Of a DNA stretch of 64,000 nt, positions 9,926-28,559 are shown piece by piece. Under the pieces are notes generated by a model. It saw only the letters and a list, made by a program, of their open reading frames with translations. It was not told the origin of the DNA and did not search any database. The stretch covers positions 2,095 to 66,094 of the forward strand of contig JAGCUY010000070.1 of the NCBI GenBank assembly GCA_017962605.1, given 5' to 3'. Source of the DNA: Kiritimatiellia bacterium (lineage in GTDB: Bacteria > Verrucomicrobiota > Kiritimatiellia > RFP12 > JAAYLN01). Both the position numbers and the translations under genes were made by a program. How positions within the stretch are numbered: the first letter of the stretch is position 1; every line of letters begins with the position of its first letter.

Positions 9926-9989
9926 CGAAAGTTGCACTTTTTTCTGGTCTTTGATAGTATTGAAAGCCAATTTTTTGGAAGGACAAAAC

Positions 9990-11558: not shown

Positions 11559-11689
11559 TCTTTCGCCTAATCCGCTGGCCGTCTTGCTAGATGCCATCGG
11601 ATACATTCGCTTCCAAAAGCGAACCACCGGCGCACAGCCCAAAAGGTTGTGCGCCTTGATTATATCTGACGGAATAATAGACTCACCCG

Positions 11690-12340: not shown

Positions 12341-12446
12341 CACCATGCGAGCCTTCGCAGGGGGAGTTATGGCACGGGCAACGGCGAGAGCGAGGATTGG
12401 TTGTGGCGAGAGAAAGCTTTGGCGATGGCGGCGTTGTTTCGCGCAC

Positions 12447-15400
12447 TTATTCTACTGTTGCCATCTCGCCTTTGTTCTCGCGGAGAATGGATAGGTTGCG
12501 CTTCGCCATCGCATTTCCTTTTTCAGCAGAACGATTGAGCATTTCAAGCACTGTGGCCTCATGGTATTCCCCGGGATTTGCTATCTCCGCATAGAGAAGA
12601 ACCGCCAGGTTGTTGAGCGCTTCCGCATCGTCGGCCATCGCGTTCAAGACAGTGTTGCCAATCGCCCGTGACGGCAACTCGCTGAAGAAAAACATCTGCG
12701 CGATGCCATCGCTCCCAGCGGTTTTGCGCAAGAAGAAATACTTTCGCGGCCCGAAGTCGTCGCTATGCCGCGCCAGTATCACAAAGCGGATGTCCTGCGA
12801 AATCTGCCACATGGCGATTGCTCGCTCGACCCCTTCAGGCAAATCCCCATATTGGATGGGCTTATCTTCGGAAATAACAGTCTCGTCCCAGTAGTCATAT
12901 CCGAGAACGGGGGAAAGCAATTCTTTTATTTCCTTTTCCCCGCAGCGTTGATACGCCCCGTCGAGTTTGTCGTATGCGTATTCCTCAGCCAAACAGTTCT
13001 GCGTCCAGTATGTATCCCTGACGCAAATGTAGCACTCCTCCTTATCGCCGCCTTTGTCAGCGGGAATGTGAAGCCTATAGACGCCATCGGCCAGTTCCGC
13101 CAGCAAGGCGCCGCTTTCTGCCTCATAGTCATCCATGTCAAGTTCCCAAAGGTCATTCGCCGCCGGTTTCCATGGACAGAAAACCATCCGTTTCAGCGTC
13201 TCCGGAGGAACAAGCCCCTTTTGCCTCAAAGCCACATGGGAATCCTCACGAAGCAGTTCGTTGACGTATTTACGCCAGTCGAGTGTGTCGTGGCGATAAC
13301 CCACATGGCGGTAGTAGCCGAGCATCATCTGGTCAATGAGCGGCAGCGCAAACCCGCTTTCCATGGAGAAATCTGCTCTGAGACAGAGTTCCGGCCTGTA
13401 GCGGAAGGGACGTGGGGGCTTTATAGATGGCTCGCCAACGAGGTCTGCGTCGCTTTTGTATTCGTATTTCCATGCAAGCGTTGACCGAGAGGGGTCTTCC
13501 TCAGTGAGGTCATATTGATGGCCATAGTAGCCAATCTTGGCATTGGCGAGGCCGTTTGTCAGATCTTCAGCGTCTAGCTCTTGCGTCCAAAACGCCTCCA
13601 TGCTTTGGTGGCCCTCAAGAGGTCTTCCAAGCTCATCGCGCGAGTCAATGATGAACCCCTCTCGCGTGAACTCGTTGGTTGATGCGTTGCCGTTGGACGC
13701 AGGTGTCACGCGCGTCCAGCCGATAAGTTCGCCGTCGTTGCCGTAGTGGAACGAATCAATCCACGTTCCCTTGGCGCATCGCCAAGGGCAAAACCCGCCA
13801 ATCTGCCGCTTCGTAAAGTCGCTGACAGCAAGCCGCCCCTGGGCGTCATATTCGCGCGTCTCGTTCGGATTGAAATAAACGCTGGCAATCGCCGGGACCG
13901 AGGCGCGGCCATTGCAGACGAAGAAGCATCCGATATCGACGCGGGAAGACTTGATGGTCGCGCCGCCCGGAAGCGGCGCGTCGAAAGCCCCGTGCCAGTC
14001 TATTTCGATGCGGGCATGTGCGGAGTCTTCTCCCTGCGTTGTTATTCGCACCTTGTCTGCATCCCCTTGCAGCACTTTCCACACGAACTCGCCGCCCGTG
14101 TTGTTTTCATTGAACAGGCCGTCGGGTTCGGGCAGCCTTTGGGCCTCCACCTCCATTATGGCCGTTTTCGCCGCCCAGAAAGCCTGGATTGCGAAATGAT
14201 GGGCGGAACGTGCGACATATTTGCCGGAATCGTCGCCGAAGTCGATGTTCGCCGCAGGAGACGTGTCAAACGGAAGCGACACCTTGATGAACGGCATGTA
14301 GGGCGGTAGCGCGTTCGTCATCGCGCGGGCGTCCGCCAAGGCCCTCCCGACGTCGATGTCCGCGAAGGACAGGACAGGGCGCTGGGCGACCCCATCCATG
14401 AACGCCGCCTCGTTCGTGACGCACCGCTGGGCGTGGCGGATGATGTTCAGCGCGGCAAGCGATGCCCGGTTCGCGAAGTTCGTCGGGAGCGCCACTACGA
14501 TGTCCCTGAAAAGGCCGGCGAACTTCGACGCATCGTCTGCGCCGCTGCTGACGCCGACGCAGACTGGCAGGTTCGCCATGAAGCGGTCGATGCCGTCCGC
14601 GCCATAGTCCGAACCTGCGGCGTAGAATCCGAGCATGTTCCGAAGGCCGTGTCGCCACACCTCGCGGCATGCCCCGCCCCTGTCGAGGGCGATGATGGCC
14701 GCCGTGCCCATCGGCCTGTTCAGGCGGTTGTCTTCACCCGGGCAGTCGCCTGTCGCCACGGTCGGGATGTGCTCCTCCCTGCGTGTGTCCCTGAACCTGA
14801 ATATCGTCTTGCGCTTGTCGTGGCCAGCCTTGCGGAGCGAGTCGGAAAACGAGACGGCCGTCATTCCCAGAGGCGGCTGGACGCGACTTCCCCAGTCGTA
14901 GTTGAGAAGGAGGACGGGCCGCGCGTCTTCGTCGGTATCGACAGAAACAAGATACTCGCCGCCGATGGGGCTTGTAGCCTCGCCGAACTCGTAATACACG
15001 TTGTCGTCGTCAAGTGCAAGCACGCCATCGGCAATCCGGGCGTGCTTGCGCGGCTCGTCCCACTGCTCCTTGATTTCGCCGGCAATGCTGACGAGTCTGT
15101 CGAACCGCGCGTCGCCGCGAATCCCGGCGAGGTCTTCGTCCTCCATCATGTAGTCCGCCTCGTTGTACCCGGCGGCGATGGCCTGTTCCAGGGCTTCGAT
15201 GGCCTCGTCGGCCCGCCCCTGGCGGGCGAGGGCGCAGGCAAGGTTGTAGAACCAGCGCGGCGGGGCGATTCTGAGACGAATTCCCTCGCGGGCGACCCTC
15301 TCGAAAACCTCCGCCCGCCCTCCGATGTCCTCGGAACACCAGTCCTGCGCCCTTTCCAATTCAAAGAAGTCCTCCGCATAGTCGGGCATTTCCGACATCG

Positions 15401-16133
15401 GGACGCGGACGTCCGCGCCGCGCCACTTGCGGCGCAGCGCGGCAAGCGCCTCGGACGCATCTTCGATTGCGTAAACATCGACATTGGCGGCCTCGATGGC
15501 CTCTGCGAAAAGCGCGTCCACCGCGTCGAGGATTGACTTGAAGTCGGTTGGCGGCGCCTCGCAGGGAAGGACGTTGGCGCTCTCGGCAAGCCGGGAGTAG
15601 CGTATCTTCACGAAACGGCCGCGCCATGCGGTGATGAAGGTCAGGGACAAGCACTTCGCCGGGGCGTCGTTCGCGTCAAATGTGAGCGATGTCCAGAGGA
15701 AAGGGAGCTTCGACCTTTCAAGCACTCCCTCCTCGCTTCTGCCAAGCCATTTGAAATTGTGCCTTATTTGCTCGATTTCATGGCATGCCTTTGCAAGTTC
15801 GCGCCTGACCTCGCCCCCTACGCCATCAGGCAGGATTGGATCGTCGCGCATGAAGATAAAGAGGCTCAATAGACGCCCATTACCGCCCAGGGTCGGGTCT
15901 TCACCAGAACTGTAAACGAGTGCGTAGTCGTCATCGCCAGATTCGGTGAAAGTTCTTCTATCCAGCATCGTCAGGCCGTCTATTTTCTCCGGGAATTCGA
16001 CGCGGAGAACAGGCTCCACCCAGGTGCTGCATTGCTGGATTGAGTTCGCCTCGTATTTCTGGGCCGCGCAAGCGTCTGACATTGCCATGCTTGCCGCGCA
16101 AATCAATGCTGCCGCTATTGTTTTTGTGTTCAT
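12447..16133 (-). CDS. large secreted hypothetical protein (1228 aa) with C-terminal Sel1-like repeats
   Basis: N-terminal signal peptide (MNTKTIAAALICAASMAMSDACAAQ). C-terminal AEALNNLAVLLYAEIANPGEYHEATVLEMLNRSAEKGNAMAKRNL resembles Sel1/TPR repeats. Confidence 0.5.
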   Translation of the reverse strand: MNTKTIAAALICAASMAMSDACAAQKYEANSIQQCSTWVEPVLRVEFPEKIDGLTMLDRRTFTESGDDDYALVYSSGEDPTLGGNGRLLSLFIFMRDDPILPDGVGGEVRRELAKACHEIEQIRHNFKWLGRSEEGVLERSKLPFLWTSLTFDANDAPAKCLSLTFITAWRGRFVKIRYSRLAESANVLPCEAPPTDFKSILDAVDALFAEAIEAANVDVYAIEDASEALAALRRKWRGADVRVPMSEMPDYAEDFFELERAQDWCSEDIGGRAEVFERVAREGIRLRIAPPRWFYNLACALARQGRADEAIEALEQAIAAGYNEADYMMEDEDLAGIRGDARFDRLVSIAGEIKEQWDEPRKHARIADGVLALDDDNVYYEFGEATSPIGGEYLVSVDTDEDARPVLLLNYDWGSRVQPPLGMTAVSFSDSLRKAGHDKRKTIFRFRDTRREEHIPTVATGDCPGEDNRLNRPMGTAAIIALDRGGACREVWRHGLRNMLGFYAAGSDYGADGIDRFMANLPVCVGVSSGADDASKFAGLFRDIVVALPTNFANRASLAALNIIRHAQRCVTNEAAFMDGVAQRPVLSFADIDVGRALADARAMTNALPPYMPFIKVSLPFDTSPAANIDFGDDSGKYVARSAHHFAIQAFWAAKTAIMEVEAQRLPEPDGLFNENNTGGEFVWKVLQGDADKVRITTQGEDSAHARIEIDWHGAFDAPLPGGATIKSSRVDIGCFFVCNGRASVPAIASVYFNPNETREYDAQGRLAVSDFTKRQIGGFCPWRCAKGTWIDSFHYGNDGELIGWTRVTPASNGNASTNEFTREGFIIDSRDELGRPLEGHQSMEAFWTQELDAEDLTNGLANAKIGYYGHQYDLTEEDPSRSTLAWKYEYKSDADLVGEPSIKPPRPFRYRPELCLRADFSMESGFALPLIDQMMLGYYRHVGYRHDTLDWRKYVNELLREDSHVALRQKGLVPPETLKRMVFCPWKPAANDLWELDMDDYEAESGALLAELADGVYRLHIPADKGGDKEECYICVRDTYWTQNCLAEEYAYDKLDGAYQRCGEKEIKELLSPVLGYDYWDETVISEDKPIQYGDLPEGVERAIAMWQISQDIRFVILARHSDDFGPRKYFFLRKTAGSDGIAQMFFFSELPSRAIGNTVLNAMADDAEALNNLAVLLYAEIANPGEYHEATVLEMLNRSAEKGNAMAKRNLSILRENKGEMATVE

Positions 16134-16161
16134 GTTGCGTATCCTTTGAAAGTGTAGGCTA

Positions 16162-18228
16162 TCAAAGCAGAATACTCTGTTTTAAAGCATTCCAGTCCTT
16201 TTCGTTCAGCGTATTCACACCAGAATTTGTCACTCGGCCCTTTGCATCAAAGTATAGATCGAGTTCACCTCCTCCGATTGGTGACTGAAAACTCAACCTT
16301 ATATGGTAATCAGAGAATGCTTTTGCAGAAACGAGTTGGAGAGGCTTGCCCTTCAGAGATTGCAAGATGCGAGCGACTATTGTTTCGTGTTGCGGACGGA
16401 CACTAATTTCTGGCTCGGCAACATCTGATTGTTCGGCTTCCTCCCCAAAGACTTCTCCTGTCTTTTTACCAACCAAAGAAGACAAGCGCCTTCGTGCTGC
16501 ATCATCAAGGCCATCGACATGGTTTTCAATGTGGGTAATCATGGCATTCTTGCGGTATATGACATCAACATATCCCGTTTTGTCTTTGCCTTGAACATGT
16601 ATCCGATACCGAGAGGAAAGCTCTTCGATTTGTCCCAATGTCAATCCAATAGATCGAATAACTTCATCGATTGCCGATGACGTCCTTTGAACACAAGTAT
16701 CCACTTCTACAGCCTTATCATAAGACTTATTAGACGCGAAAACATTAGACAAAGCGTCAATATGCGGAGAATTGGCAACGAATAAGTGTTCCTTGGCGCG
16801 TGTTGTAACAGTGTATGCCCAGCGGAAGAAATAACTACTCATGAGATTTAATCCACAATTGTAGTCCGCCCATACATAATTCCATTCACCACCCTGTGAC
16901 TTGTGGCCTGTAACGGCATAGCCGAATTTTACAATTGGTGCGCGAAGCCAAGGCAACTCTGCCATTTTTTCTTTAACCAATTTGTCCCAAAACAGCTTTT
17001 TGCTTCGGTCTTTTCGGAAATCGGGATATTTCTTTCGCAAAATTTCTTCTGCAAAATGTTTTACCCCATTGTAGAGTCCCATTTGGGCAAAACAATCATG
17101 TTCATCCCATTCGGAAAGAATTATGGGTGTAACATTTATCCAGATGTTATCGACCTGACCACGTTCGGGTTCATAAGTCCAACGCAGAGACATCCTCTTA
17201 AACGTGTATGTGAAGGTGAAAGTCTTTTCACTTTCTTTTGGGCGATAATACCCTTGCAAAGAAAAAGTTTCCCCGAAAGTGTTCACAACAGTGAGAAAGT
17301 CGCCATTGAAGAACTGCACCTTCTCTCCAGATGGAAGAAGAATGCGTGTGTTTCTGATGGATAGAAGCCTTTCTCCGTATTCCGGCAATTTGCCAAAATG
17401 CCCCAAAAAACCTCGAATTACAGCATTGTATTCTTGTACTTTGGCATTAGTATGGGCAATGGCAATCTTTTCGTCTATTGAATCCTTCCAATCGGGAACG
17501 ACAGACAATGTCTCTTCAGAGACCATTGAGACATCCTCGTGCGAGGTAAATGAGAAACGATTGAAGTCTTTTGCTTCAAGCGCTGAGCGCAACCTTGTCG
17601 CCTCAGCAAGGATGCCACTCCCTTTGCTTTGACGGAATACCTCGGTAAGTTCTATTACAGTCGGTTTAAATGAGGTTAATTCCTCTATCTTTTCCGCATC
17701 CAGGGCAGGAGGAGTCTCGCATTGCTCCATGACAGGAGGAAGCTGGAAAGAGTCTCCGACGAAAAAAAGAATGTTTGACGTATTTTGAGTCTTAATTCCA
17801 GAATACTGAATCAAATCCCCCAAAAGAGAACCACTGCCGAATTGAAACAACTCACGATCATTATCATGCTTGGAAAGACCGACCATCGAGGCTTCGTCTA
17901 TGATAAAAGCCGTGTTTTCAACATCCTTGTCATCCTTTAGTGGGAAAATCCATTTCAGCGCATCGTCTTGCTCGTCCCGGATTGGTTCATTCACAATGTT
18001 GAAGATTCCTGAATGGATAGTTGAAGTATCAAATCCTGTTCTCTTGTGTAGAACCATCGCAGCCCGACCCGTAGGAGCCATCAGCATCGGGAAGAGTCCG
18101 CGTTCTTGAAGAACTGGCACAAGCGAACGGATAAGGGTTGTTTTACCAGTACCAGCGGCACCCCGGATGATGAAACAGCGGGTACCAGCATCAAGCGCAT
18201 GCAAAATAGTGTCAAGAGGATTTCTCAT
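16162..18228 (-). CDS. SF1B RecD/Pif1-like DNA helicase (AAA_30 + UvrD_C_2-type) with about 200-aa C-terminal extension
   Basis: Motifs I GAAGTGKTT, Ia MAPTGRAA, II IIDEASMV, III VGDSFQLPPV, IV VFRQS, V YAVTGHKSQGGEWNYVW, VI YTVTTRAKEHL. Start codon lies 2 nt after the RT stop. Low-GC gene. Confidence 0.75.
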   Translation of the reverse strand: MRNPLDTILHALDAGTRCFIIRGAAGTGKTTLIRSLVPVLQERGLFPMLMAPTGRAAMVLHKRTGFDTSTIHSGIFNIVNEPIRDEQDDALKWIFPLKDDKDVENTAFIIDEASMVGLSKHDNDRELFQFGSGSLLGDLIQYSGIKTQNTSNILFFVGDSFQLPPVMEQCETPPALDAEKIEELTSFKPTVIELTEVFRQSKGSGILAEATRLRSALEAKDFNRFSFTSHEDVSMVSEETLSVVPDWKDSIDEKIAIAHTNAKVQEYNAVIRGFLGHFGKLPEYGERLLSIRNTRILLPSGEKVQFFNGDFLTVVNTFGETFSLQGYYRPKESEKTFTFTYTFKRMSLRWTYEPERGQVDNIWINVTPIILSEWDEHDCFAQMGLYNGVKHFAEEILRKKYPDFRKDRSKKLFWDKLVKEKMAELPWLRAPIVKFGYAVTGHKSQGGEWNYVWADYNCGLNLMSSYFFRWAYTVTTRAKEHLFVANSPHIDALSNVFASNKSYDKAVEVDTCVQRTSSAIDEVIRSIGLTLGQIEELSSRYRIHVQGKDKTGYVDVIYRKNAMITHIENHVDGLDDAARRRLSSLVGKKTGEVFGEEAEQSDVAEPEISVRPQHETIVARILQSLKGKPLQLVSAKAFSDYHIRLSFQSPIGGGELDLYFDAKGRVTNSGVNTLNEKDWNALKQSILL

Positions 18229-18230
18229 GG

Positions 18231-20069
18231 CTATAGGTCTCCATAAATGCCGAAATTGCTACCAGATTTTTCTTTGCAATAGTAGTCTTGAATCTCTACC
18301 CTTGTTAATCCCTTGAAAGAGCCATAGTAGCTAAATGGCGCTCCATAGTACCCTCGTTTAATTGTCAAGGTCGTGCTGTCGTTTACGGAAAGGTCTTTGT
18401 TGCCATTATCGCAGTCTATCGCCGGAGTTGCGGGATGCTGTTTCCGCCACTCTCTCTTCATGGCCTTTTTCGCCAGTTTCAGAACAGAGTTGCGTGTTCT
18501 ATCGAGGTTTTTAAGTTGAGACACTACTGAAGGACAAGACGAAATGTGGGGCAGAAATACCGCCAGCCAACTTCTGGCAAATCTTGCATTAGCCGGACGA
18601 TCAATCCTTCCCACGCCAATGGCTGTTAGACGCAATTGGAAAACCTTGAAGAGGTCATACCAGGTAAATCCATTCCTAAACTGGGATTGCGCGTCTTTGA
18701 GCATACGAGTAAGTCGCGTCTTTTCCATGTACATTTTATCCTGATGCTTTTTTATAGTTTCCTTTTTTATGCGGACTGCTCCATCATATCGTATCTGATG
18801 GCCCAGAAAACTAATCCATGGCGTACCAGGGCGTCCTAATCCAGTCTCCTTCCAGGCAATGGGGCCTTTTGATTTTTCGGTGAAGTACGCCGATGAATAC
18901 CTCGCACTTTTAGCTATGGGGTGTGTCGGTAGTTTTAATCGTTTCACAGCATCCAAATACCTGTCAAGAGCCTCCTTGCACTTCTTTTTTTCGGGATGTA
19001 CGATAATTATGTCATCGCAAAATCTTGCATAAAACAAGTTCTCATCTGCATCAGCCATAACAGCGCGGTCGGCTTCATCCATGACGATGTTAGCCAAAAG
19101 TGGTGAAAGCGCACCGCCTTGCGGAATCCCTATTTCATGTGGATTCACATCTTCGTCCCCATAAACTGATTGCAGGACACTAATCGGCACACGATCTACA
19201 CACTCGCGCTTAGCAATGATTTCCGGGTCTTCGTATTCGTCAAGATTGCGTGGAAATGCGTAAACATTCAAATATGCTTCAAGCACTTTCCGAGCGCGGT
19301 TGTCAACACCTTGCGGGGCACGGGCGGAAAAAATGTCGAAAGCTCGCCTAATTATATCGTGGTTGATTACGTCAAAGAACTTTTGAATATCGCAATCTGC
19401 CACATAGAGAGTTTGGTTCGTAAAGCGTTTTCTATATTCGATAAGATTGTTTATGGCCGTATGGATGGAATACTTTTTCCCGTTGCGGCGAAAAGCATAG
19501 CAACAGTTCAGCAAATGTGAATCAAAAACATTCCGAAGATATGCGGCAGTTTTTGAAAGAATTACCCGATCTTTTGAATCGGTAAAACACGACAGGCATC
19601 GGTATGAAGATTTCTTGTTCTCTTCGTCCATCGTTTTTACACGTCCTGTATTCTTCCGAATCAACATCAACTCAGGCCTTCTAAATGCGAATTCGCCGAT
19701 GGTTATAGTTTTTTGTATGTCCATGGCAAATGCAACCAGATTTCTGCCCCATTGGGAGTCTTTGAGCTTTCCGGCTTTCAGCATTCCAGAAATAACGCGA
19801 ATGATTGACAATGTGGCAACATCATTTTGCGATAAACCTTTTCGGGCTTCTTTGCCGCCCCGTCGCCACAGACGGCGCGGCGGAAGCATCTTAGTAATGG
19901 ATTCTTCACTTATCTTACTCTTGGGTTCAAGTTCCTTTCCGGCGTCATCGTGCAAAACCAGCCGGTCCCAATACATATGGTATCTATGGCGTGAAGAGGC
20001 AATACGAGTCCGCAAGGCGCACAGCACCTTTACGATGTCATCAAAACTGAAATACTGCTCAAAATCCAT
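18231..20069 (-). CDS. reverse transcriptase (612 aa) with long N- and C-terminal extensions; not intron/retron/DGR-like in context
   Basis: RT motifs 1-2 (CCYAFRRNGKK ... YVADCDIQKFFDVINHD), 4 (IGIPQGGALSPLLANIVMDEAD), 5 (YARFCDDIIIV = YxDD box), 7 (ISFLGHQIRYDG). About 190 aa precede motif 1 and about 200 aa follow the thumb. Low-GC. Confidence 0.8.
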   Translation of the reverse strand: MDFEQYFSFDDIVKVLCALRTRIASSRHRYHMYWDRLVLHDDAGKELEPKSKISEESITKMLPPRRLWRRGGKEARKGLSQNDVATLSIIRVISGMLKAGKLKDSQWGRNLVAFAMDIQKTITIGEFAFRRPELMLIRKNTGRVKTMDEENKKSSYRCLSCFTDSKDRVILSKTAAYLRNVFDSHLLNCCYAFRRNGKKYSIHTAINNLIEYRKRFTNQTLYVADCDIQKFFDVINHDIIRRAFDIFSARAPQGVDNRARKVLEAYLNVYAFPRNLDEYEDPEIIAKRECVDRVPISVLQSVYGDEDVNPHEIGIPQGGALSPLLANIVMDEADRAVMADADENLFYARFCDDIIIVHPEKKKCKEALDRYLDAVKRLKLPTHPIAKSARYSSAYFTEKSKGPIAWKETGLGRPGTPWISFLGHQIRYDGAVRIKKETIKKHQDKMYMEKTRLTRMLKDAQSQFRNGFTWYDLFKVFQLRLTAIGVGRIDRPANARFARSWLAVFLPHISSCPSVVSQLKNLDRTRNSVLKLAKKAMKREWRKQHPATPAIDCDNGNKDLSVNDSTTLTIKRGYYGAPFSYYGSFKGLTRVEIQDYYCKEKSGSNFGIYGDL

Positions 20070-20222
20070 AGGAGAAAAAAAGGAGGCGGCGTCGCGGAAT
20101 TCTACCTAGTTGGCCGCTTTGCGCCCTTTAGGGCGCAGGAATTTGACGCGGGGAACCAATTGGCCTGCAAGCCCCGCCAGAATCACGGTCGTTAGCCGTG
20201 CGCGACGCGCGCCTCCATAAAA
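20070..20222 (-). ncRNA. candidate structured non-coding RNA / regulatory leader immediately upstream of the RT gene
   Basis: 153-nt spacer that is GC-rich inside an AT-rich island. Contains a perfect hairpin TGCGCCC-TTTA-GGGCGCA (about 20119-20136) and further GC palindromes (GCGCGACGCGCGC). No ORF. Confidence 0.25.
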
Positions 20223-22925
20223 TCATTTCACAACCTCCAATGTGACAGCCTTCCACCCAACGCGATCCTTGAGCTTGTCGTAGGATTTCACCGCTACGCC
20301 TCCGATTTCCGTGCCATTTGTTAAGTCCTGAATAAGGCTTTGTGGCACGAAAATATCTTTTGAGTCGCCTGTTCTGTTGCGAACGAAACCATAGTTACGG
20401 CCTTCGGGCCTGTTGAATGTCCCGGAATAAAACATGCCGAAAGAAGGGAACCCTTCGTACTTGACATTTATTATTTCAAGAATATATGATTTGCCGCTTT
20501 TTGCGCTTCTTTCAAGAGCCAATTCGCATACCGTTCCGCTAGGCATGTTAGCCAGACATGGAAGCTTTGCCCAGTCACCTGTGCATGTTTCGCCATTGTT
20601 GCCGATTGTAAACTCTGAACGCCCACGACGTTTGTCTTGATAAGATAGAATGGCAATCTGCTTGGGGTAAATGTCCCATGGGACTCCCTCCTCTCTTTTC
20701 TCAACCTTGAGGACTCGTAGCCGTTCGCCAACCACTTCCGTCCAGATTTTCACGGGCATTCCTGGCGTAGCCATGCCAAGTACGGGAAATCGTCTTGTTT
20801 CAACGCGAACTTCGGTTGAATTTCCAAAATCTGCAAAAATCTTGGCAATTTTCTCATTGCGTTCCTTGTCAACATAGCATGTCATGAGAACGGCATTAAT
20901 GAAAGGCTGGCCGGCAAACGCGATTTCATCTGCCTTGGCCGCAAACTCATGGTACACGTCTTCATTACTATTTGTTGGAGTTGGATCGGTGGTAAACCGC
21001 ATCTTCTCGCCATCTGGAATTGCCTTTATTGTAACCAACTGTTTTTTTAGCAATTCGTCTTTTTTTTGCCGGAGTTGGTAGAGACTCCATTTTTTTGCGG
21101 TTCGGATCTCTTTTACAATCCTCAATTCACATAGAGCCTCAGGTATTTTTCCCATTTCAATGAAGGCGTCAGCAAGCATTTCATGGACGCCTACAAGATA
21201 CGAACTGTCTTTTGCCGGACAAAGCGCTGCGCGGCAAAGGCAGGCAAAGAATTTCTCCCTGTCATCGTGAAATGTTTCGGCAAGAAGTTGCCAAGTCCAA
21301 AACTGAGCCGATTTTTTGCGAGTTATTTTCGCTATATACTCTCTGGCCTTGACGGATTCGCCGCTTTCAACAAGCAGTTTTCCATAATAGAATGGAAACC
21401 ATTCCTGCGAAGGGTATCTTTCCATGGCCATCCTGATGAAATCCAATATCCATTTGTGGCCTACCACGAACGCAAGGTTTTCACTACGGCCTTTTTGTTT
21501 TGCACACTTATAAAGCAATCCTACTACAGTTTCAACAAGAGAAGGAAATGATTTGTTCGGATTGTCTTTCGGGATGAACGGCGCGTAATCTTCTTCGGCG
21601 AAATTGGAGACATCCCAATTTTTGACAAAATGGAGGAATTGAATGGCCAATTGTTCTTGGATATTCTCACCCGCAGCCTTTACTATCTTTGCATAGATTC
21701 GCAGATATTGCGAATAGGCAACCGAAGGCTTCGGAACGGCCGAGCAGCAATTCACCAAATTGAAACCTTCGACGACGCAATTTGTGACGGCATCTTCCTG
21801 CCCGTTCTTTTCTCGTCCCTCTGGGAAAACGTCATTGAGAATTTTCTTCAATGACGCAGGAGTCAAATCTGCCGCATTTGGATTCCAGCCTTTCTTCAAG
21901 GCTTCGTCTATTGTTCGATAAAGCGCCCAGATTGCACTGGTCTGGGCTTTCTCGCTTTCTGGGTTTAGCGGAATGGCGGCACAGTATTCCCTGAAGGCAC
22001 GGGGATAATCACCAAGCTTGTCACAGACAGAAGCCAATGCCATGTGTGCAAGGAAACTTGTTGGCTGTTCACTAATAAGCGATTCTGCCTTTGACAATGC
22101 TTCTGCCAGCGACTCCGGGTTTGCTGCCAATGCTTTTATTTCACCAGTCCCACTCAAAAACTGGTCAGCTTTTTTTAAGTCTATTGGTCTTGTCGCTTTG
22201 ACTTTGCTTTCTCCTGCGGCTTCCTCATTAAGAGAGAGGTTACGCATTTCGTTGGCAAAGAACTCGACTAGCTTTCGATTCTTAAGGTTTTCCATCGATT
22301 GTTTTAGGCAATCATGGAGCGTCCAAAACATATCTAGTTGGCATGAGGTATCATCACATTTATCAAGCAGTTTTGCCCTGCATTCCTCGAATTGTGCCGA
22401 AAGGTGTTCCTCGCTTGAAAGAGCCTCTGAGGCATAATGTTGAATCAGCTTTTTCAAAATCATGTCATATTCACTATCTCCAAGAGAAAGCCCTTGAAGG
22501 ATAGAGACGAATCTTTCTCGCGTTTTCTGAAGAGTTTCTTTTTGTGTTTTTCCAAGAACATGTAGAGACTTAAGGGCGGCGATTGCGTTGCATCCAGCCC
22601 AGCCAACTGCGCTCGCATTTTTAGCGGTGTCGAGATTGTAGAGGTCGCAGGCCATCAGGAACGCTATAATGCGACATGATTGCAATTCAATATTGTCAGA
22701 GCCACAAGTAGTAATTGCAGCTTTTGCCTCCCGTCTTATGGCCGTGCAAACCTTGAATGCATCCTGACGGTTCGCTGCTGCATATGTTATCCATGACTTT
22801 TGCACTTCATCAGCATAGATCCCATTCAAGGCTGCAATGACATCTACGTCTTTGCGCGTCGCAAGGCCGGAAGCTAGCAACTGCTGCAAATCATCTAGTT
22901 TCCATGTTGTCGTGAAGGTTGCCAT
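20223..22925 (-). CDS. 900-aa alpha-helical (TPR-like) protein with C-terminal cold-shock-domain-like OB fold
   Basis: Mostly helical, repeat-like N-terminal 650 aa. C-terminus NYGFVRNRTGDSKDIFVPQSLIQDLTNGTEIGGVAVKSYDKLKDRVGWKAV parallels the CspA RNP1/RNP2 motifs (KGFGFI ... DVFVHFSAI). No nucleotide-binding motifs. Low-GC. Confidence 0.45.
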   Translation of the reverse strand: MATFTTTWKLDDLQQLLASGLATRKDVDVIAALNGIYADEVQKSWITYAAANRQDAFKVCTAIRREAKAAITTCGSDNIELQSCRIIAFLMACDLYNLDTAKNASAVGWAGCNAIAALKSLHVLGKTQKETLQKTRERFVSILQGLSLGDSEYDMILKKLIQHYASEALSSEEHLSAQFEECRAKLLDKCDDTSCQLDMFWTLHDCLKQSMENLKNRKLVEFFANEMRNLSLNEEAAGESKVKATRPIDLKKADQFLSGTGEIKALAANPESLAEALSKAESLISEQPTSFLAHMALASVCDKLGDYPRAFREYCAAIPLNPESEKAQTSAIWALYRTIDEALKKGWNPNAADLTPASLKKILNDVFPEGREKNGQEDAVTNCVVEGFNLVNCCSAVPKPSVAYSQYLRIYAKIVKAAGENIQEQLAIQFLHFVKNWDVSNFAEEDYAPFIPKDNPNKSFPSLVETVVGLLYKCAKQKGRSENLAFVVGHKWILDFIRMAMERYPSQEWFPFYYGKLLVESGESVKAREYIAKITRKKSAQFWTWQLLAETFHDDREKFFACLCRAALCPAKDSSYLVGVHEMLADAFIEMGKIPEALCELRIVKEIRTAKKWSLYQLRQKKDELLKKQLVTIKAIPDGEKMRFTTDPTPTNSNEDVYHEFAAKADEIAFAGQPFINAVLMTCYVDKERNEKIAKIFADFGNSTEVRVETRRFPVLGMATPGMPVKIWTEVVGERLRVLKVEKREEGVPWDIYPKQIAILSYQDKRRGRSEFTIGNNGETCTGDWAKLPCLANMPSGTVCELALERSAKSGKSYILEIINVKYEGFPSFGMFYSGTFNRPEGRNYGFVRNRTGDSKDIFVPQSLIQDLTNGTEIGGVAVKSYDKLKDRVGWKAVTLEVVK

Positions 22926-22961
22926 GTCAATCTCCGGTTATTGTCATTCAATTTGCAATTG

Positions 22962-24170
22962 CTAACCCTCAAAAACTAATCGTATCTTCGGACTTGGGCG
23001 TATACATTTTTCATACGGACGTGGGATGTCAATATCGCTCCCCTCAAAAAAACGTTTCACGTGGTCAACTATCTGACAACGTCTAAACTTCGCATCATCT
23101 CGTTCCAATGAACCATCACCTATGTCCCCGCTATAAGGGTGAAAGGTATTTAAATGGCCATTTTCATCACAGATATCAAGGCCTTCGGGAATCCTCATTG
23201 AGTAAATGCCGCCAACAATTGCACGGTTGTGAAACGTATGCGTCCTCCTAGAGTTATAATCCTTTTTGAGTAGCAAAACACGTATCAACAAACCCATTGC
23301 ATTGTTGTGCCTTATTTTATTGGTTCTTCCCATTTCTTCAATCAGATTAATCACTTCTAAGGCTGAAAACTTTTCATATTCCACAGGGTATTTCGAGATT
23401 ATCGTCAGTTCCGTAATATCAGAATTTGACATAAATGGTTGCAACAACGCTTTTGAGGAATGCTTCCATCGGTTTTGATTGTCAATGTGTTCGGAAGTAT
23501 TATCATCATTAGGTTTCGCAATTGCGCTCCAGTACCGGTCGGCAAGCACTACTTGTCCTTCTGCTGCGGCACAAAAAGCATTCATATAGTCATAAAAAGA
23601 GTTTTTGGAACTATCATCATATGTTTGTTCTCCTATCCATTTTTTACGCAATATTTCTGTATCACTTTCTTCATAGTTATCTATTGATTCACAGACGAAA
23701 GATTGTCGTAAGTTGTTTATTGATAACCCTTCACTAAACTTGTCGGTTATTATAACGAAGCCCTTGATTTCTCGTGGGGTGGCAATACGCCGAGTATGTT
23801 TGGTCCATGCTTGGATACATTCTTTCAAATAGTCATTATCATCGCCCGTGGACTCGTTAATCGCTACTATATGTTTTCGATCTTCATAAAGGCTATCATA
23901 ATTTTTGAGAACGTTGCAAAGATTGCCAAAAAAGCCGCCTTCTTCTAGTTCGGCATATTCCTCCGCATATTGTTCTGCAATGGTCGTAATTAAAGCAAGA
24001 GGTTTGCGCGCTTTACTAAACTCGTCAAGAATGAGAATACCATTGGCTTCAATAGCATTGCGAAGATTGACAAGTCTGCTTTGAAGTTGTACGGCATACA
24101 CTATGTTATTCGCCGCCTTATCGATGCAACGGCGAATATGCATCCAATCTATGAGATACTGAACAATCAC
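22962..24170 (-). CDS. hypothetical 402-aa protein, partner of the adjacent ABC-type ATPase
   Basis: GTGA start/stop overlap with the upstream ATPase gene. Very AT-rich. No confident domain. C-terminal C-x-x-N-G-H...H...C...D-H region is a possible but unconvincing nuclease-like motif. Confidence 0.4.
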   Translation of the reverse strand: MIVQYLIDWMHIRRCIDKAANNIVYAVQLQSRLVNLRNAIEANGILILDEFSKARKPLALITTIAEQYAEEYAELEEGGFFGNLCNVLKNYDSLYEDRKHIVAINESTGDDNDYLKECIQAWTKHTRRIATPREIKGFVIITDKFSEGLSINNLRQSFVCESIDNYEESDTEILRKKWIGEQTYDDSSKNSFYDYMNAFCAAAEGQVVLADRYWSAIAKPNDDNTSEHIDNQNRWKHSSKALLQPFMSNSDITELTIISKYPVEYEKFSALEVINLIEEMGRTNKIRHNNAMGLLIRVLLLKKDYNSRRTHTFHNRAIVGGIYSMRIPEGLDICDENGHLNTFHPYSGDIGDGSLERDDAKFRRCQIVDHVKRFFEGSDIDIPRPYEKCIRPSPKIRLVFEG

Positions 24171-25228
24171 CTCACGCCCTCAATTCCGAAGAATTCATCG
24201 ACAACTCTTGTTCGAGCAGTAAAGAATCCACCCGGCCATCTCGTTCGATAGTTTCCATAGGAGTCGGTCTTTATCTCATCCACTATACTACCCTCTTCGG
24301 TTTTTGTAACATATAGCACGGAAAGGTCATCTGGCGTAATCGTTCCCATCCTAAGGAAGTTTTTTAGTTTCAAAGCCATTAGTTCGCTATGGCTCTCAAC
24401 AATAAGCTGTCTGTCTCGATTCTCATTAGCGGTCTTGAAAATGAAATTCATGAGACTGGATATTTGCCGCTCGTTGACATGGGATTCCGGCTCTTCAAGT
24501 GCAAAAAGATGTTTTTGCCCCGCCCTCCATTTGCAAAGGCTCAGTCCTGTCTCATACAATCCGTCTATCCCTGCTCCTGTATTGTCTCGCACGACAGTTA
24601 TACCAAAAGTTTTGTCTTTAAGTCTGCTAAAGTCAAGGGCCTCATAAGGGACATTTAGTTCCGAAAAAAACTCATTAACAAATTTGATTGCATCCGTCCC
24701 AAGAAGGAGTGCTTCGTCCAGACTCGTTTTTTTCGTTTCGTCGATTCTGGTCCGAATTGGACGAGCGGCTTCTTGGTGAATCATTTCTGGAACGCCATTG
24801 ACATACGGATCTTTCAAACTCTGATGAATACGTTTCCTCTCTTCAACATCGGTCGGCCTTTCATAAAAGCTATGGACAGCCCCTGAATATGGAGTTTCAT
24901 AGCCGATGTACTTTAGAGAATGTCCGTTTTCACTTTCTCGCCCTTCTTGCCTTGCAGAATACTCATATTTTGGGGAGTGTCCCAAAGAATCTGCGGATGT
25001 TGTTATCCTCAATTTGATTTCCAGATTTGTGTCGCCTGAAAAAACATACTCTTTAAAATTAGCACGAATGGCGGCTACTTCGTCGTTGCATATCATGCGC
25101 AACAATTGAAGGAAAGTGCTTTTCCCGGCGCTATTGTCACCAAAGATAAAGTTGATTCGCCGCAGAGAAAAATCTACTCCTGGGTCACCATAGCACTTGA
25201 AGTTTTTCAGTTGAATTCGCCTAATCAT
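24167..25228 (-). CDS. ABC-type (AAA_15/AAA_21, SMC-head-like) ATPase, defence-associated type
   Basis: MIRRIQLKNFKCYG N-terminus typical of the family. Walker A GDNSAGKST. Walker B/D-loop LFALEEPESHV ... LIVESHS. Likely start at 25228 (MIRR) rather than the track start at 25318. Confidence 0.65.
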   Translation of the reverse strand: MIRRIQLKNFKCYGDPGVDFSLRRINFIFGDNSAGKSTFLQLLRMICNDEVAAIRANFKEYVFSGDTNLEIKLRITTSADSLGHSPKYEYSARQEGRESENGHSLKYIGYETPYSGAVHSFYERPTDVEERKRIHQSLKDPYVNGVPEMIHQEAARPIRTRIDETKKTSLDEALLLGTDAIKFVNEFFSELNVPYEALDFSRLKDKTFGITVVRDNTGAGIDGLYETGLSLCKWRAGQKHLFALEEPESHVNERQISSLMNFIFKTANENRDRQLIVESHSELMALKLKNFLRMGTITPDDLSVLYVTKTEEGSIVDEIKTDSYGNYRTRWPGGFFTARTRVVDEFFGIEGVR

Positions 25229-25262
25229 GAGCAAACCTCTCCTCCAAAAACAAACGATAAGA

Positions 25263-26417
25263 TTATACCAAAAAATGGCTTTCTTTGATAAGGTCTGGAC
25301 ATCCGCAGACATCCGCAACTATTTCCCTGTTCCTCCACTTGATTCGTTGCAGGGGGAATGTGACAGGGGCGTTGCGCTTGGGGACAAGTGTTTCCACGGC
25401 TGTGAAGCCGGCGGCGGCAAGGCTTTTGCGGAGGTTCGACATGGTCTTGGTCAGGTCTTCCGCGAACTTCTCGTTGGAGAAGAGCGAACCCTCCTGGAAA
25501 GTGGCTATCCAGTCGCATTTGCCGGATGCATGGTTTTCCGTGCCATGCAGGGCGAGTAGTCGCCTATGGAGGTCACGGATAGGGCACCCGCCAGCAATCA
25601 AAAGGAGCGTCGCAAAGCATGGGCGGCTCATGGGGACTGTCGCCCCGTCGAGTGTCACCCAGCCATTCCATGCGTCGATTTCAATCTCAGGATAAACAAC
25701 GGCTGGCGGTGCGACTTCCTGAACCCGCGAAACAAGTGTTCCGTAATTTGGCGGCAGCGACTTGAACTTCTCCTGATACCACCCACGCATGCGCACATAC
25801 GGCACCTCGAACAGCTCGCTTTTCAGCGAAGCACCCGCATGACTCTTTCCCGTAAGCAGGGACTTGTAGCGCGTTCCCTTTTTGGGGAAGAAGAAGGGCG
25901 GCTCACTTCCACCCTCCAATGCTGGCGGCAGCAACACATGGTAAACCTTGTCGCAATCGCGGCCGAGAAGCGTCATGCAGGAAAACATGAGGGCGCTCAT
26001 TGTCTTTCGTCCGCCTGCAATCGATACGTGGAGTTCCGTCCCGCAATCCTCTGTGAATTGGCGTAGTTGCGAGAGCATGAAGTTTGCTGCGCGGAGATTG
26101 TCGTCGCCCGTCCTGAGATCGTCGATTTCGTTGCCATGCGCATCAGGGATGGCGCGAATGGATGCGCTCCCGAAAACGAGACGCCCTTCGACATCAAGCC
26201 CGCTCCGCTTCATGCAAGCCAACATGTCGTTCCAAACGCCCCCTTCGAGAAGCGCTTCGCAAAGACATCTCTTCCCGCTCTTCGTCGTGATGGCGACGAC
26301 CTCGTCAGGCACAACCGGAACATCACAATGGGCCAGCGCCCATGCGGTCTCCGTGAGAATCGACGGCGTCGTGCCAACAACGGCCACCAAAACTGCCTTC
26401 TTGTCCTTTTCCATCAC
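25263..26417 (-). CDS. CARF-domain protein (CRISPR-associated NE0113-like Rossmann sensor) with uncharacterised C-terminal domain
   Basis: Strand-1 motif VLVAVVGTTPSILTETAWAL and strand-4 motif LHVSIAGGRKTMSA match the two CARF signatures. 384 aa. GC-rich, host-like composition. Directly upstream of the AT-rich island on the same strand. Confidence 0.45.
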   Translation of the reverse strand: MMEKDKKAVLVAVVGTTPSILTETAWALAHCDVPVVPDEVVAITTKSGKRCLCEALLEGGVWNDMLACMKRSGLDVEGRLVFGSASIRAIPDAHGNEIDDLRTGDDNLRAANFMLSQLRQFTEDCGTELHVSIAGGRKTMSALMFSCMTLLGRDCDKVYHVLLPPALEGGSEPPFFFPKKGTRYKSLLTGKSHAGASLKSELFEVPYVRMRGWYQEKFKSLPPNYGTLVSRVQEVAPPAVVYPEIEIDAWNGWVTLDGATVPMSRPCFATLLLIAGGCPIRDLHRRLLALHGTENHASGKCDWIATFQEGSLFSNEKFAEDLTKTMSNLRKSLAAAGFTAVETLVPKRNAPVTFPLQRIKWRNREIVADVCGCPDLIKESHFLV

Positions 26418-27676
26418 TATTCCCCCTCTAGCAGAAAGTCGTAGGCGTTGACTTGGTGGACGCCATTGTTCGAGGCTGGCAGATCCATGTCGAGCGTAAT
26501 CAGCGTCTTGGGGTAGTGGTCGCGTATCGCCAAAAGAGGCGCGTATTCGCGCATCCGCGTCGTTTCGTCCCGCACTGTCTCCGCAACCTGGTAATAGCGG
26601 ATGTCGTCGCCATCCCGCGTGACAAAATCGACTTCTCGGCCGTCATGTTGCCCAACCATGACATTTCCCGAACGGCGCAGCAACTCAAGATAGACGATAT
26701 TCTCCAGCATGCGCCCCGAATCGCCGGAACGGTTGCCCAGAAGACGGTAACGCAATCCCATGTCAACGGCATAGTATTTGCACCCGCTTGTGAGTACATC
26801 CCGTCCGCGAATGTCATAGCGCGGGGCCTTTAGGAAAAGGAAGGCGTCGCACAAGGCATCAACATAGCCCTCGACCGTGTTGCCGTTCGTCCTGGCACCG
26901 GCGGAGGAAAGCGAGGTGGCGATGTTCCTGAGGCTCGTCAGATTGCCGATATTGTCCAAGAGGAAACGAGCTATGCGGTCGACCAGCCCCGCGTCCGTCA
27001 TCTTCCGCCGTCGCAGAACATCCTTCACCAGAACGGTATTGTAGATGCCGTCAAGATACTCGCCTACAAGCCTCGCATCGCCCCGCAGTGACGGAACATA
27101 CGGAAAAGAACCGAAGCGAAGGTAATCTAGGTAATGACGGGTGTAGTCCCCTGTCGCGCCGATGGCGTTGCAGTATTCGCGGAATGACAGCGGCTGCATC
27201 TTGATTTCAACATAGCGGCCGGAGAGAAATGTCGCGAGGTCGCCTGAAAGCATGTTGGCGTTCGAACCCGTGACATAGACGTCGATGTTCTTGCGCGAAT
27301 GGAGTCCGTCAACCAGCTTCTCGAACTCCGGCAAACGCTGAACCTCGTCAAGGAAGACATATGTCTTTCCATGAGTGGCAATCTGCTGCTTGATGAGATT
27401 CCAAGCATCGCGCCATGACGAAAACTCCGGCGTATCGGGATCCTCGAAGTTGAGGGCGACAATCCGGCTGTCAGGTACGCCGGCGCGCTTCAAACTGTCA
27501 CGAAAGATTTCAAGGATCGTGGACTTTCCGCAACGGCGGACGCCTGTCACGACTTTGACAAGATCATGGTCTCGCCAATGTTCCAACTGGCGCACGTAAT
27601 ACGGCCTGCCGAAGATAGTCTTTTCGCTGTTGTCCATAAGCAACTTCCCGATATAAAAACACTTCAATTGAATCAC
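26417..27676 (-). CDS. AAA+ ATPase, AAA_14 + DUF4143 family
   Basis: Walker A GVRRCGKST, Walker B VFLDEVQ, and a C-terminal region typical of DUF4143 ATP-binding proteins. 1-nt overlap with the CARF gene. Confidence 0.65.
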   Translation of the reverse strand: MIQLKCFYIGKLLMDNSEKTIFGRPYYVRQLEHWRDHDLVKVVTGVRRCGKSTILEIFRDSLKRAGVPDSRIVALNFEDPDTPEFSSWRDAWNLIKQQIATHGKTYVFLDEVQRLPEFEKLVDGLHSRKNIDVYVTGSNANMLSGDLATFLSGRYVEIKMQPLSFREYCNAIGATGDYTRHYLDYLRFGSFPYVPSLRGDARLVGEYLDGIYNTVLVKDVLRRRKMTDAGLVDRIARFLLDNIGNLTSLRNIATSLSSAGARTNGNTVEGYVDALCDAFLFLKAPRYDIRGRDVLTSGCKYYAVDMGLRYRLLGNRSGDSGRMLENIVYLELLRRSGNVMVGQHDGREVDFVTRDGDDIRYYQVAETVRDETTRMREYAPLLAIRDHYPKTLITLDMDLPASNNGVHQVNAYDFLLEGE

Positions 27677-27734
27677 ATTTCATCGAGAAAGTCAAGAACT
27701 GCTAAAATATTTGAGCATTTTTAAATAAAACATG

Positions 27735-27762
27735 GGAAATGCTAATCTCGATTAGCATTTCA
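27735..27762 (-). terminator. perfect 11-bp inverted repeat (AAATGCTAATC-N3-GATTAGCATTT) followed by a T-rich tract on the minus strand
   Basis: Read directly. Sits at the 3' end of the ferredoxin-like gene and upstream of the DUF4143 ATPase gene. Could be a terminator or an operator. Confidence 0.3.
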
Positions 27763-28404
27763 CAGGCCATCCTCCATCGTAAGCGTGTGGCGGGGGCAGC
27801 GGTCTATGCAGCGGCGGCACTGGATGCAATCGGGGTTGCGGAAGAGTCCGTCCTGCGTGTCCTTGGGTGGGGTGAATCCGAAGGGGCAGACCCTTGAGCA
27901 GAGCCCGCATTTGACGCAGGTGTCCGCGACGCGGATGGCGGTGCGCTCGGGACGGATCGTCTTGTAGATTTTCCCCATCGGGCAGACGGAACACCAGAAC
28001 CAGCGGTTGAAGACAAGCCACCCGACAAGGCCTACCGTCGTAGTGATGGCGATCATGGCATAGAAGAGGAACCCCCAGCCGCGCACCGTTGATGGCCGCA
28101 TCCAGAGGTAAAGCCCCGCCACCATCGCCACCATGACGAAGAGCGATGTTTTCCGCGAAAGGAGTTTCGTCGGAACCTTGCGCCCGGTGTCGGGCAGCAG
28201 CGAATAGAACGCGCCCCGTGGGCAGAAGTTCCCGCACCCGTGCCGTCCGCCGTGCCGGAGCGCCCCGACAAGCCCCACCGCCACATTCACGAAAAGGCAG
28301 TAGGCGAGATACGGGTATTTCCATCCAAGCGCCAGGACGATTACAAACACCAGCGCCTTGATTCTGTCTTTGGTCTTCCTAGTCATGGTGGTTCTCGGCT
28401 TCAT
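27760..28404 (-). CDS. membrane-bound 4Fe-4S ferredoxin-type protein (NapH/MauN-like)
   Basis: Several TM helices plus two C-x2-C-x2-C-x3-CP clusters (CVKCGLCSRVCP, CIQCRRCIDRCP). Confidence 0.55.
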   Translation of the reverse strand: MKPRTTMTRKTKDRIKALVFVIVLALGWKYPYLAYCLFVNVAVGLVGALRHGGRHGCGNFCPRGAFYSLLPDTGRKVPTKLLSRKTSLFVMVAMVAGLYLWMRPSTVRGWGFLFYAMIAITTTVGLVGWLVFNRWFWCSVCPMGKIYKTIRPERTAIRVADTCVKCGLCSRVCPFGFTPPKDTQDGLFRNPDCIQCRRCIDRCPRHTLTMEDGL

Positions 28405-28559
28405 GAGGCGTTACGACTTCCCAATGACCGCCCTTGTCCGGACCGACGCGGCGGATAACGCCCGGTTGCTTCGCTGACCCGCGCCAATAGCGGGGGAGAA
28501 GTGAATTTGCCTCTCCAAATTCATGCCCGCGAAACGCATTTATTCTAGCACAATGCGCA

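Follow-up and report, generated by a model that had tools for sequence, protein, structure and literature searches.

A Probable TOTE-Family TPR-OB Protein Encoded next to a Structured RNA and a UG39-Type Reverse Transcriptase in a Kiritimatiellia Genome

Introduction

DRT2 and DRT9 are class 2 UG reverse transcriptases (RTs) that make single-stranded DNA (ssDNA) with an upstream noncoding RNA (ncRNA) (PMC12483538). Type V retrons (Retron-Sen1/Se72) encode a small cold-shock domain (CSD) protein of 67–86 amino acids (aa) (PMC7736814), and the UG39 RTs, which were split from UG28 (DRT9), have been associated with a primase-like protein comprising VirE and PriCT-2, their role in defense being judged inconclusive (Mestre et al. 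2022, PMC9226505). The TOTE systems, named after their tetratricopeptide repeat (TPR), oligonucleotide/oligosaccharide-binding (OB), TBP, and effector components, are predicted conflict systems (Aravind, Iyer and Burroughs 2022, as cited in PMC12458937), and a core of TPR-CSD and TBP proteins is also found joined to other types of helicase and nuclease, as described in the YprA/TALON preprint (PMC12458937). Here we analyze a 64,000-nucleotide stretch of the genome of a Kiritimatiellia bacterium (GenBank assembly GCA_017962605.1, contig JAGCUY010000070.1, positions 2,095 to 66,094), hereafter the window, which encodes a 900-aa protein composed of a TPR-like solenoid and three predicted OB folds, its gene lying just before that of a UG39-type RT.

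The 900-aa protein is very probably a member of the TOTE TPR-OB family, and the RT- and ncRNA-linked cassette to which it belongs appears to be an undescribed TOTE variant, the scope of TOTE being taken here from Pfam names and from the citation in PMC12458937. For the large TOTE/PDC-M16 family, this variant points to a concrete candidate ligand, namely the RT's own complementary DNA (cDNA) or the ncRNA, and for the UG39 RTs it bears on a role in defense that the literature leaves open (PMC9226505).

Results

The gene for the 900-aa protein has an ATG start with GGAG located 8 nt 5' of it, and the N-terminus of its product is common to homologs at 80–83% identity. A full-length AlphaFold2 model built from a 13-sequence alignment (mean pLDDT 78) contains ∼34 helices over residues 1–632, followed by a disordered linker (residues 630–654), one helix, and then beta-barrels. 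Foldseek matches of the helical part are long TPR scaffolds, namely Ski3 (the scaffold of the Ski2 helicase complex), Ctr9, IFT-A, TTC7, APC/C, and OGT, a resemblance to the scaffolds of multi-enzyme complexes. Pfam gives weak TPR matches at residues 273–328 and a clear match to DUF7017 (PF22860) at residues 508–616 (95.5 bits against a cut-off of 27.5, E 3.5e-27). Residues 1 to ∼260 are an N-terminal extension found only in the RT-linked subfamily, in which the motifs invariant in the 13-sequence alignment include WTLHDC and EEHLS.

The C-terminal region is modeled as three tandem OB barrels of five strands each, with a short helix linking the third strand to the fourth, and was also modeled separately (residues 640–900; pLDDT 84.7, pTM 0.76). 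A first-pass annotation, made from the sequence alone, had described a TPR-like protein immediately upstream of an RT and ending in a CSD-like OB fold. The helical part and the position of the RT gene (same strand, across a gap of 153 nt) were read correctly, and the OB fold is indeed predicted, as an array of three rather than as a single domain. The third barrel is CSD-like: it matches S1CSD-TOTE-2 (PF22707) at residues 833–895 (49.3 bits against a cut-off of 27, E 5e-13), superposes on CspA (TM 0.72, rmsd 2.8 Å over 69 columns), and carries RNP1/RNP2-like motifs (GFV, 846–848; FVP, 859–861) that are invariant in 13 of 13 sequences. Residues 640–900 gave no Pfam match, even at E ≤ 10, for a first S1/CSD-like TOTE domain, S1CSD-TOTE-1, a model presumed to exist from the suffix of S1CSD-TOTE-2, although OB folds are modeled there at 675–743 and 755–820. 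In Foldseek searches against the Protein Data Bank (PDB), the OB region matched the Drosophila Unr CSD456 (E 2e-6), as well as the ssDNA-binding baculovirus LEF-3, the tandem OB domains of HIN-200, and the CSDs of RNase II/R. When the 900-aa protein was compared with PDB sequences, the matches were designed or consensus TPRs alone, with no relative of solved structure among them. Searches of Pfam, NCBIfam, PADLOC, and the PDB by sequence and by fold found no nuclease, TIR, or ATPase domain, in agreement with the first-pass annotation. The OB array most likely binds single-stranded nucleic acid, and the ∼630-residue solenoid most likely docks partner proteins, in the manner of Ski3-type scaffolds with the Ski2 helicase.

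Membership of the TOTE family is indicated by a PADLOC match to PDC-M16B (E 4.6e-65, residues 197–898) together with the two Pfam domains, so that the protein, which the first-pass annotation had assigned to no family, falls within a named, computationally predicted family, the TPR-S1/CSD proteins of TOTE. The label PDC in PADLOC denotes a candidate system. A profile search of 1.84 billion representative sequences recovered 4744 clusters (50% identity) at E ≤ 1e-3 and 398 at E ≤ 1e-30; most of these family members are ∼630 aa long and match profile positions ∼290–853 alone. The distribution of the family is patchy and mostly metagenomic. Distant relatives are plasmid-borne, next to transposases, recombinases, and toxin-antitoxin (TA) genes, and annotated plasmid records name them "hypothetical" or "tetratricopeptide repeat protein." The relatives without an RT (L003–L008 and a Sulfurospirillum plasmid; related loci are numbered with the prefix L) are two-gene loci, with a helicase-TBP gene first and then a gene for a TPR-OB protein of ∼495–650 aa. 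A hidden Markov model (HMM) of the triple-OB region aligns the ∼495-aa proteins of L003–L009 mainly over the second and third OB folds.

Loci related to the window were gathered with the 900-aa protein, with the ncRNA sequence pattern, and with RT homologs down to 36% identity. A TPR/DUF7017 protein with an OB module is encoded directly before the RT in 13 of the 14 related RT loci, at RT identities of 36–83%, and the recurrent order of genes is an AAA_15 ATPase, a conserved protein of 310–400 aa, the TPR-3xOB protein, a gap of ∼155 nt, and the RT. Every locus with a TPR-OB gene upstream of the RT has the ncRNA in the gap before the RT; the TPR-OB protein of L026 is shortened. The helicase-TBP gene lies after the RT in the window, L011, and L016, between the partner and TPR-OB genes in L023 and L027, and upstream in L012, L017 (both on the opposite strand), and L024. 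In one locus, L025 (8825–14767), the RT is followed by a DUF1848 protein and by a different helicase of 888 aa, and in L016 a DUF1848 fragment likewise comes after the helicase, suggesting a modular exchange of partners.

Two further arrangements were observed among these loci. The more distant RT loci L024 and L028 have an RT flanked by two TPR-OB paralogs, the second being the product of the gene right after the RT, a DUF7017 protein of ∼630 aa that also contains OB folds (10707–12584 and 10920–12833, respectively). A divergent LysR-type regulator is found upstream of the ATPase gene in L012, L023, L024, L027, and L028, and is not found in the window.

The gap between the TPR-3xOB and RT genes is GC-rich amid an AT-rich island and encodes a conserved structured RNA that is better conserved than the proteins flanking it. 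Its predicted fold comprises a long closing stem around three hairpins (minimum free energy, MFE, –69.6 kcal/mol, z –3.26), with a variable single-stranded segment of ∼25 nt located 5' of the 3' strand of the closing stem and a pyrimidine/U-rich tail after it. The TPR-3xOB gene ends ∼10 nt before the closing stem. A 3' run of at least four U is present in most homologs, not all (L002 and L022 have TCTTCTTCTTC). A covariance model built from eight sequences, R1, was run on the 15 sources that carry the RT, comprising the window and 14 related loci. Fourteen of them have exactly one match, adjacent to the RT on its upstream side, and the fifteenth has a weak match at the expected place when filters are switched off. 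The RT-less TOTE loci scanned with R1 gave no match. In a 14-sequence alignment fitted to the covariance model, both positions vary in 24 of the 36 pairs, and 96.9% of cells are paired, compared with 42–57% once the partners are slid; none of 500 shuffles reached the observed values. An independent MAFFT alignment of eight sequences shows 7 covarying pairs, where shuffling gives 2.1 on average. A scan of positions 15500–28500 against Rfam at E ≤ 1 yielded chance matches to miRNA and sRNA families alone, and the ncRNA has no Rfam family; it represents a new family of structured RNA absent from that database. The sequence pattern of the ncRNA has no match in viral contigs and nine in metagenomes, six of which were discarded as chance matches to GC-rich coding DNA without genes of the system.

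Two other roles for the element were considered. A de novo gene of the DRT2 kind, with an open frame over the whole ncRNA, is not supported, although short of a strict exclusion, because all six reading frames contain stop codons in the window; likewise no frame is open in all homologs. A simple intrinsic terminator is rejected because the element has four covarying helices, is confined to positions upstream of RTs of this family, and is kept in L025, where there is no TPR-OB gene.

The adjacent RT matches Pfam RVT_1 (E 1.6e-19) and, over its full length, the PADLOC model RT_UG39 (E 3e-131), whereas the Drt9 (E 5e-22, residues 153–446) and Drt2 (E 1e-25) HMMs match the RT core alone. A retron RT was considered and rejected on the basis of retron NCBIfam models that score 42.4, 30.2, and 19.5 bits against cut-offs of 235, 600, and 450, respectively. 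The motif FYARFCDD (F346–D353), including an intact FCDD active site, is invariant among homologs, and from these residues the enzyme looks active. Also invariant, across 33–100% identity, are a C-terminal G-x-P-F-S-Y motif (residues 576–581, Y581) and the terminal Y609. The 15 RT-bearing sources, annotated with Pfam, have no VirE plus PriCT-2 gene and carry TOTE components instead, and the primase-like neighbor reported for UG39 does not hold for this large clade.

The helicase gene starts 2 nt after the RT stop codon, in the same operon. Its product matches AAA_30, AAA_19, and UvrD_C_2 in Pfam and PDC-M16A in PADLOC (E 9e-116), with intact Walker A (GAAGTGKTT) and Walker B (IIDEAS) motifs. 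Against a cut-off of 27 bits, TBP-TOTE (PF22721) scores 16.2 bits on the whole helicase of the window and 21.2 bits on its C-terminal fragment, in two stretches, and all seven aligned helicase homologs match the family (best E 1.4e-19). Upstream of the TPR-3xOB gene are the genes for a conserved 402-aa protein and an ABC-type ATPase (table 1). The ATPase likely starts at Met31 of the listed open reading frame (ORF; 24167..25318), judging from its sequence, and has Walker A (GDNSAGKST) and Walker B (EEPE) motifs; its PADLOC and NCBIfam matches are weak or partial and of the NsnB (E 2e-26), AriA, GajA, and PtuA types. In 10 loci its gene directly precedes that of the partner. For the 402-aa protein itself, Pfam, PADLOC, and NCBIfam give no family match, nor does a profile search of the PDB, and a large homolog search with it returned three proteins. 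Invariant residues among nine homologs are D211, H314-x-R316, and G330-x-D332, and one homolog matches MIT_C, a phospholipase D (PLD)-like family, across the invariant region (E 2e-4, 21.8 bits against a cut-off of 25). This provides a weak lead that the partner possibly has a PLD-like (MIT_C-like) fold, and the ATPase and the partner may together form an effector pair.

A gene for a CARF-domain protein is found in the closer subclade (the window, L011, L012, L017, and, as a fragment, L016), directly after the RT in L012, and is absent near L022, L023, L024, and L028. Its membership of the cassette is uncertain because it is present in this subclade alone, and it may be an accessory or a mere neighbor in the island; no CRISPR-Cas genes occur near it in the window. 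The whole cassette is contained in a low-GC island (∼16–26 kb, 44–48% G+C against ∼62% around it) that is flanked by housekeeping genes, and the 64-kb window shows neither a tRNA nor an integrase. A 1228-aa protein encoded directly downstream of the helicase, with a weak A/B-hydrolase-like match at its N-terminus, was considered as a component and rejected, as its G+C content exceeds that of the island and it shows no conservation across related loci. At the margin of the island, the gene string is closed on its upstream side by the gene for a PDC-S01 ATPase, which overlaps the start of the CARF gene, and a SNF2-family helicase gene lies just outside.

Table 1. Features of the window, with positions counted from its first nucleotide
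Feature	Position	Strand	Basis or remark
Gene for TPR/alpha-solenoid + 3xOB protein, 900 aa	20223..22925	-	ORF, Pfam, PADLOC, full-length model
All-helical TPR-like solenoid, residues 1–632	21030..22925	-	Secondary structure of model, Foldseek
OB fold 1, residues 675–743	20697..20903	-	Structure models
OB fold 2, residues 755–820	20466..20663	-	Structure models; Foldseek to tandem CSD/OB proteins
OB fold 3, CSD-like, residues 830–893	20247..20438	-	Pfam S1CSD-TOTE-2, motifs, CspA superposition
Conserved structured ncRNA, ∼150 nt	20068..20221	-	MFE, covariance model, covariation
RT, 612 aa, UG39 type (class 2 UG/Abi)	18231..20069	-	RVT_1, RT_UG39, invariants
Superfamily 1 (SF1; RecD2/Pif1-like) helicase, 688 aa, probable C-terminal TBP-like domain (PDC-M16A)	16162..18228	-	Pfam, PADLOC
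Conserved ATPase partner, 402 aa	22962..24170	-	Conserved position, 9-homolog alignment
ABC-type ATPase (AAA_15/AAA_21, DUF3696)	24167..25228	-	Pfam AAA_15 E 1.2e-16
CARF-domain protein (Cas_NE0113/Csx1-like), 384 aa	25263..26417	-	Pfam E 4e-28, TIGR02584 E 1e-42
1228-aa protein	12447-16133	-	TPR end-of-group domain NF047558, E 2e-17
AAA_14/DUF4143 ATPase	26417-27676	-	PADLOC PDC-S01, E 4e-145
SNF2-family helicase with DUF3670, 931 aa	28724-31519	-	
MiaB-like (island flank)	31521-32966		
FtsK (island flank)	34123-36780		
Solute symporter (island flank)	9951-11558		

Discussion

The features computed for this locus are the domain architecture of the 900-aa protein, its lack of an enzyme fold, its family membership, the conserved cassette, and the structured RNA. 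On this basis we propose that the protein is the RT variant of a TOTE TPR-OB adaptor, which reads the cDNA or the ncRNA-RT complex and couples it to the enzymes of the cassette, a statement to which, taken as a whole, we give an even chance of being right. The UG39-type RT would make single-stranded cDNA with the upstream ncRNA, and the triple OB array would read either this cDNA or the complex of RT and ncRNA. What it reads would be passed on by the solenoid to the enzymes, namely the SF1 helicase-TBP protein and the ABC-type ATPase with its partner, and a change due to phage infection would then switch these effectors on. From the computed features we infer nucleic-acid binding, the nucleic acid that is bound, the protein contacts, and the defense role. 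The first-pass annotation had offered a scaffold that binds the RT product as one of its alternatives, and this is the option that we also favor. That the 900-aa protein reads the RT product in particular we put forward tentatively, at somewhat short of even chances. The context is consistent with defense, given the CARF, PDC-S01, and AAA_15 ATPase genes nearby, the low-GC island, and the plasmid-borne relatives beside recombinases.

The strongest competing explanation, which we nevertheless consider unlikely, is that the protein is a direct sensor of invaders, in which the OB array binds phage ssDNA or RNA, for instance intermediates of replication or transcription, and thereby licenses the RT and the helicase as effectors. 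Direct sensing of phage nucleic acid is presumably the ancestral role in RT-less TOTE: the canonical two-gene loci function without an RT gene, and in TALON the pair of TPR-CSD and TBP proteins is joined to other types of helicase and nuclease (PMC12458937), observations that together suggest a portable sensor module. However, the RT-linked subfamily has gained an N-terminal extension and an extra OB fold, and its gene has been kept directly before the ncRNA-RT unit across RT identities of 36–100%. These subfamily-specific parts and the kept position suggest that the function of the protein is bound up with the RT module, and reading of the cDNA or of the RT-ncRNA complex is therefore the most economical explanation.

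A more modest role for the protein would be that of an RT cofactor or RNA chaperone, its CSDs melting or holding the ncRNA, or coating the nascent cDNA against host exonucleases in the manner of a single-stranded DNA-binding protein (SSB), thus enabling reverse transcription, with no signaling involved. CspA-type CSDs are RNA chaperones, the CSD proteins of type V retrons have been proposed to destabilize RNA structure (PMC7736814), and exonuclease and SSB-like proteins govern how much of the DRT9 product accumulates (PMC12483538); the short distance between the end of the TPR-3xOB gene and the closing stem of the ncRNA would also suit such a role. A conserved solenoid of 630 residues is, however, far beyond the needs of a chaperone, and the family and the RT module each occur without the other, the family in RT-less loci and the RT with its ncRNA in L025, making this explanation improbable.

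The first-pass annotation had also raised the possibility of a toxic protein with a new mechanism. Such a protein could be a non-enzymatic effector, for example one sequestering cellular RNA or ssDNA. Neither the RT nor the 900-aa protein has a recognizable effector domain, and three OB folds could titrate nucleic acids, but the cassette contains enzymatic candidates, namely an SF1 helicase with intact Walker motifs and an ATPase with a partner bearing invariant residues, and the effectors of the TOTE and TALON relatives, as far as they are described in PMC12458937, are helicases and nucleases. This explanation has little support and is very unlikely, and the neighboring enzymes are the likelier effectors. 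Equally little supports a housekeeping factor of RNA metabolism (a Ski3-like scaffold or an RNase II/R-type cofactor) with no conflict role, which is scarcely credible: the resemblance to Ski3 and the RNase II/R CSDs, the type of homology that the first-pass annotation had set against its own suggestion, is confined to the fold, with 8–14% identity, whereas the gene lies in a low-GC island, is linked to a UG/Abi-family RT, and belongs to a patchy, mostly metagenomic family with plasmid relatives beside transposases, recombinases, and TA genes.

Several points weigh against the proposed adaptor. OB folds mediate protein contacts as well as binding nucleic acids. The position of the helicase-TBP gene is variable and the gene was not seen in some RT loci. 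L025, whose RT is 46% identical, has the ncRNA and the RT without a TPR-OB gene, so this RT can work in another context. Canonical TOTE loci are without an RT, which means that the OB folds cannot originally have bound an RT product. Finally, a literature search found no paper testing any TOTE or PDC-M16 member.

In a fuller version of the proposal, the cassette could be a distinct and undescribed multi-component RT defense system, with cDNA made on the ncRNA (perhaps protein-primed, from the tyrosine of the G-x-P-F-S-Y motif), a triple-OB switch that binds this cDNA specifically, and helicase-TBP and ATPase/PLD-like effectors. We regard this fuller version as speculative, its probability being below one half. 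A cDNA switch, if true, would give TOTE its first concrete ligand and a DRT-type system a cDNA "reader" protein, and a cassette of five to six genes makes a tractable system.

Comparison with Known Systems

The canonical TOTE loci share with the window a DUF7017 solenoid that ends in OB folds of the S1/CSD-like kind, together with an SF1 helicase as partner, whose C-terminus is in the window probably TBP-like; the PADLOC models PDC-M16A and PDC-M16B both match over their full length. The canonical proteins have two detectable OB folds in 495–650 aa, whereas the 900-aa protein has a third OB fold and an N-terminal region of ∼260 residues, and its gene is accompanied by the ncRNA and RT downstream and by the ABC-type ATPase and its partner upstream. 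In TALON, too, a helicase and a nuclease are combined with a module made up of TBP proteins and a TPR-CSD fusion (PMC12458937). In that system, however, the helicase is YprA (superfamily 2) fused to an inactive RNase H fold, the nuclease is of the NERD type, and no RT or ncRNA is reported (PMC12458937); TALON is also largely found in the Chloroflexota (PMC12458937), whereas the window is from a metagenome-assembled genome of the Kiritimatiellae.

Retron-Eco7 (Ec78) and Septu PtuAB resemble the cassette in joining an RT-ncRNA unit to an ABC-type ATPase and a second protein. They differ in that the partner protein in the window lacks an HNH motif or match, the weak MIT_C signal coming from one homolog, and the PtuA match of the ATPase reaches 18 bits against a cut-off of 500. 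Type V retrons likewise encode an RT, an ncRNA, and a protein with a CSD fold together, and are the retron type to which the first-pass annotation had correctly attributed a CSD protein (Retron-Sen1/Se72; PMC7736814). The link to retrons does not extend to the RT, which is of UG39 type, outside the retron clade to which the type V RT belongs, and far below the cut-offs of the retron models; nor is the single domain of the type V proteins, which makes up their entire length, comparable in size to a 900-aa solenoid protein with three OB folds.

The layout of the RT module resembles that of DRT9 and DRT2, with a structured ncRNA of ∼150 nt directly upstream of the RT, an analogy of arrangement that comes with no sequence similarity. 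It further recalls DRT9 in a U/pyrimidine-rich stretch near the 3' end of the ncRNA, although the U-run is not universal here, and in invariant tyrosines near the C-terminus of the RT, which recall, by analogy only, the priming tyrosines of DRT9 (PMC12483538). The DRT9 RT belongs to UG28 and that of the window to UG39, and whereas DRT9 and DRT2 consist of an RT and an ncRNA alone, the cassette described here adds the TPR-OB protein, the helicase, and the ATPase with its partner.

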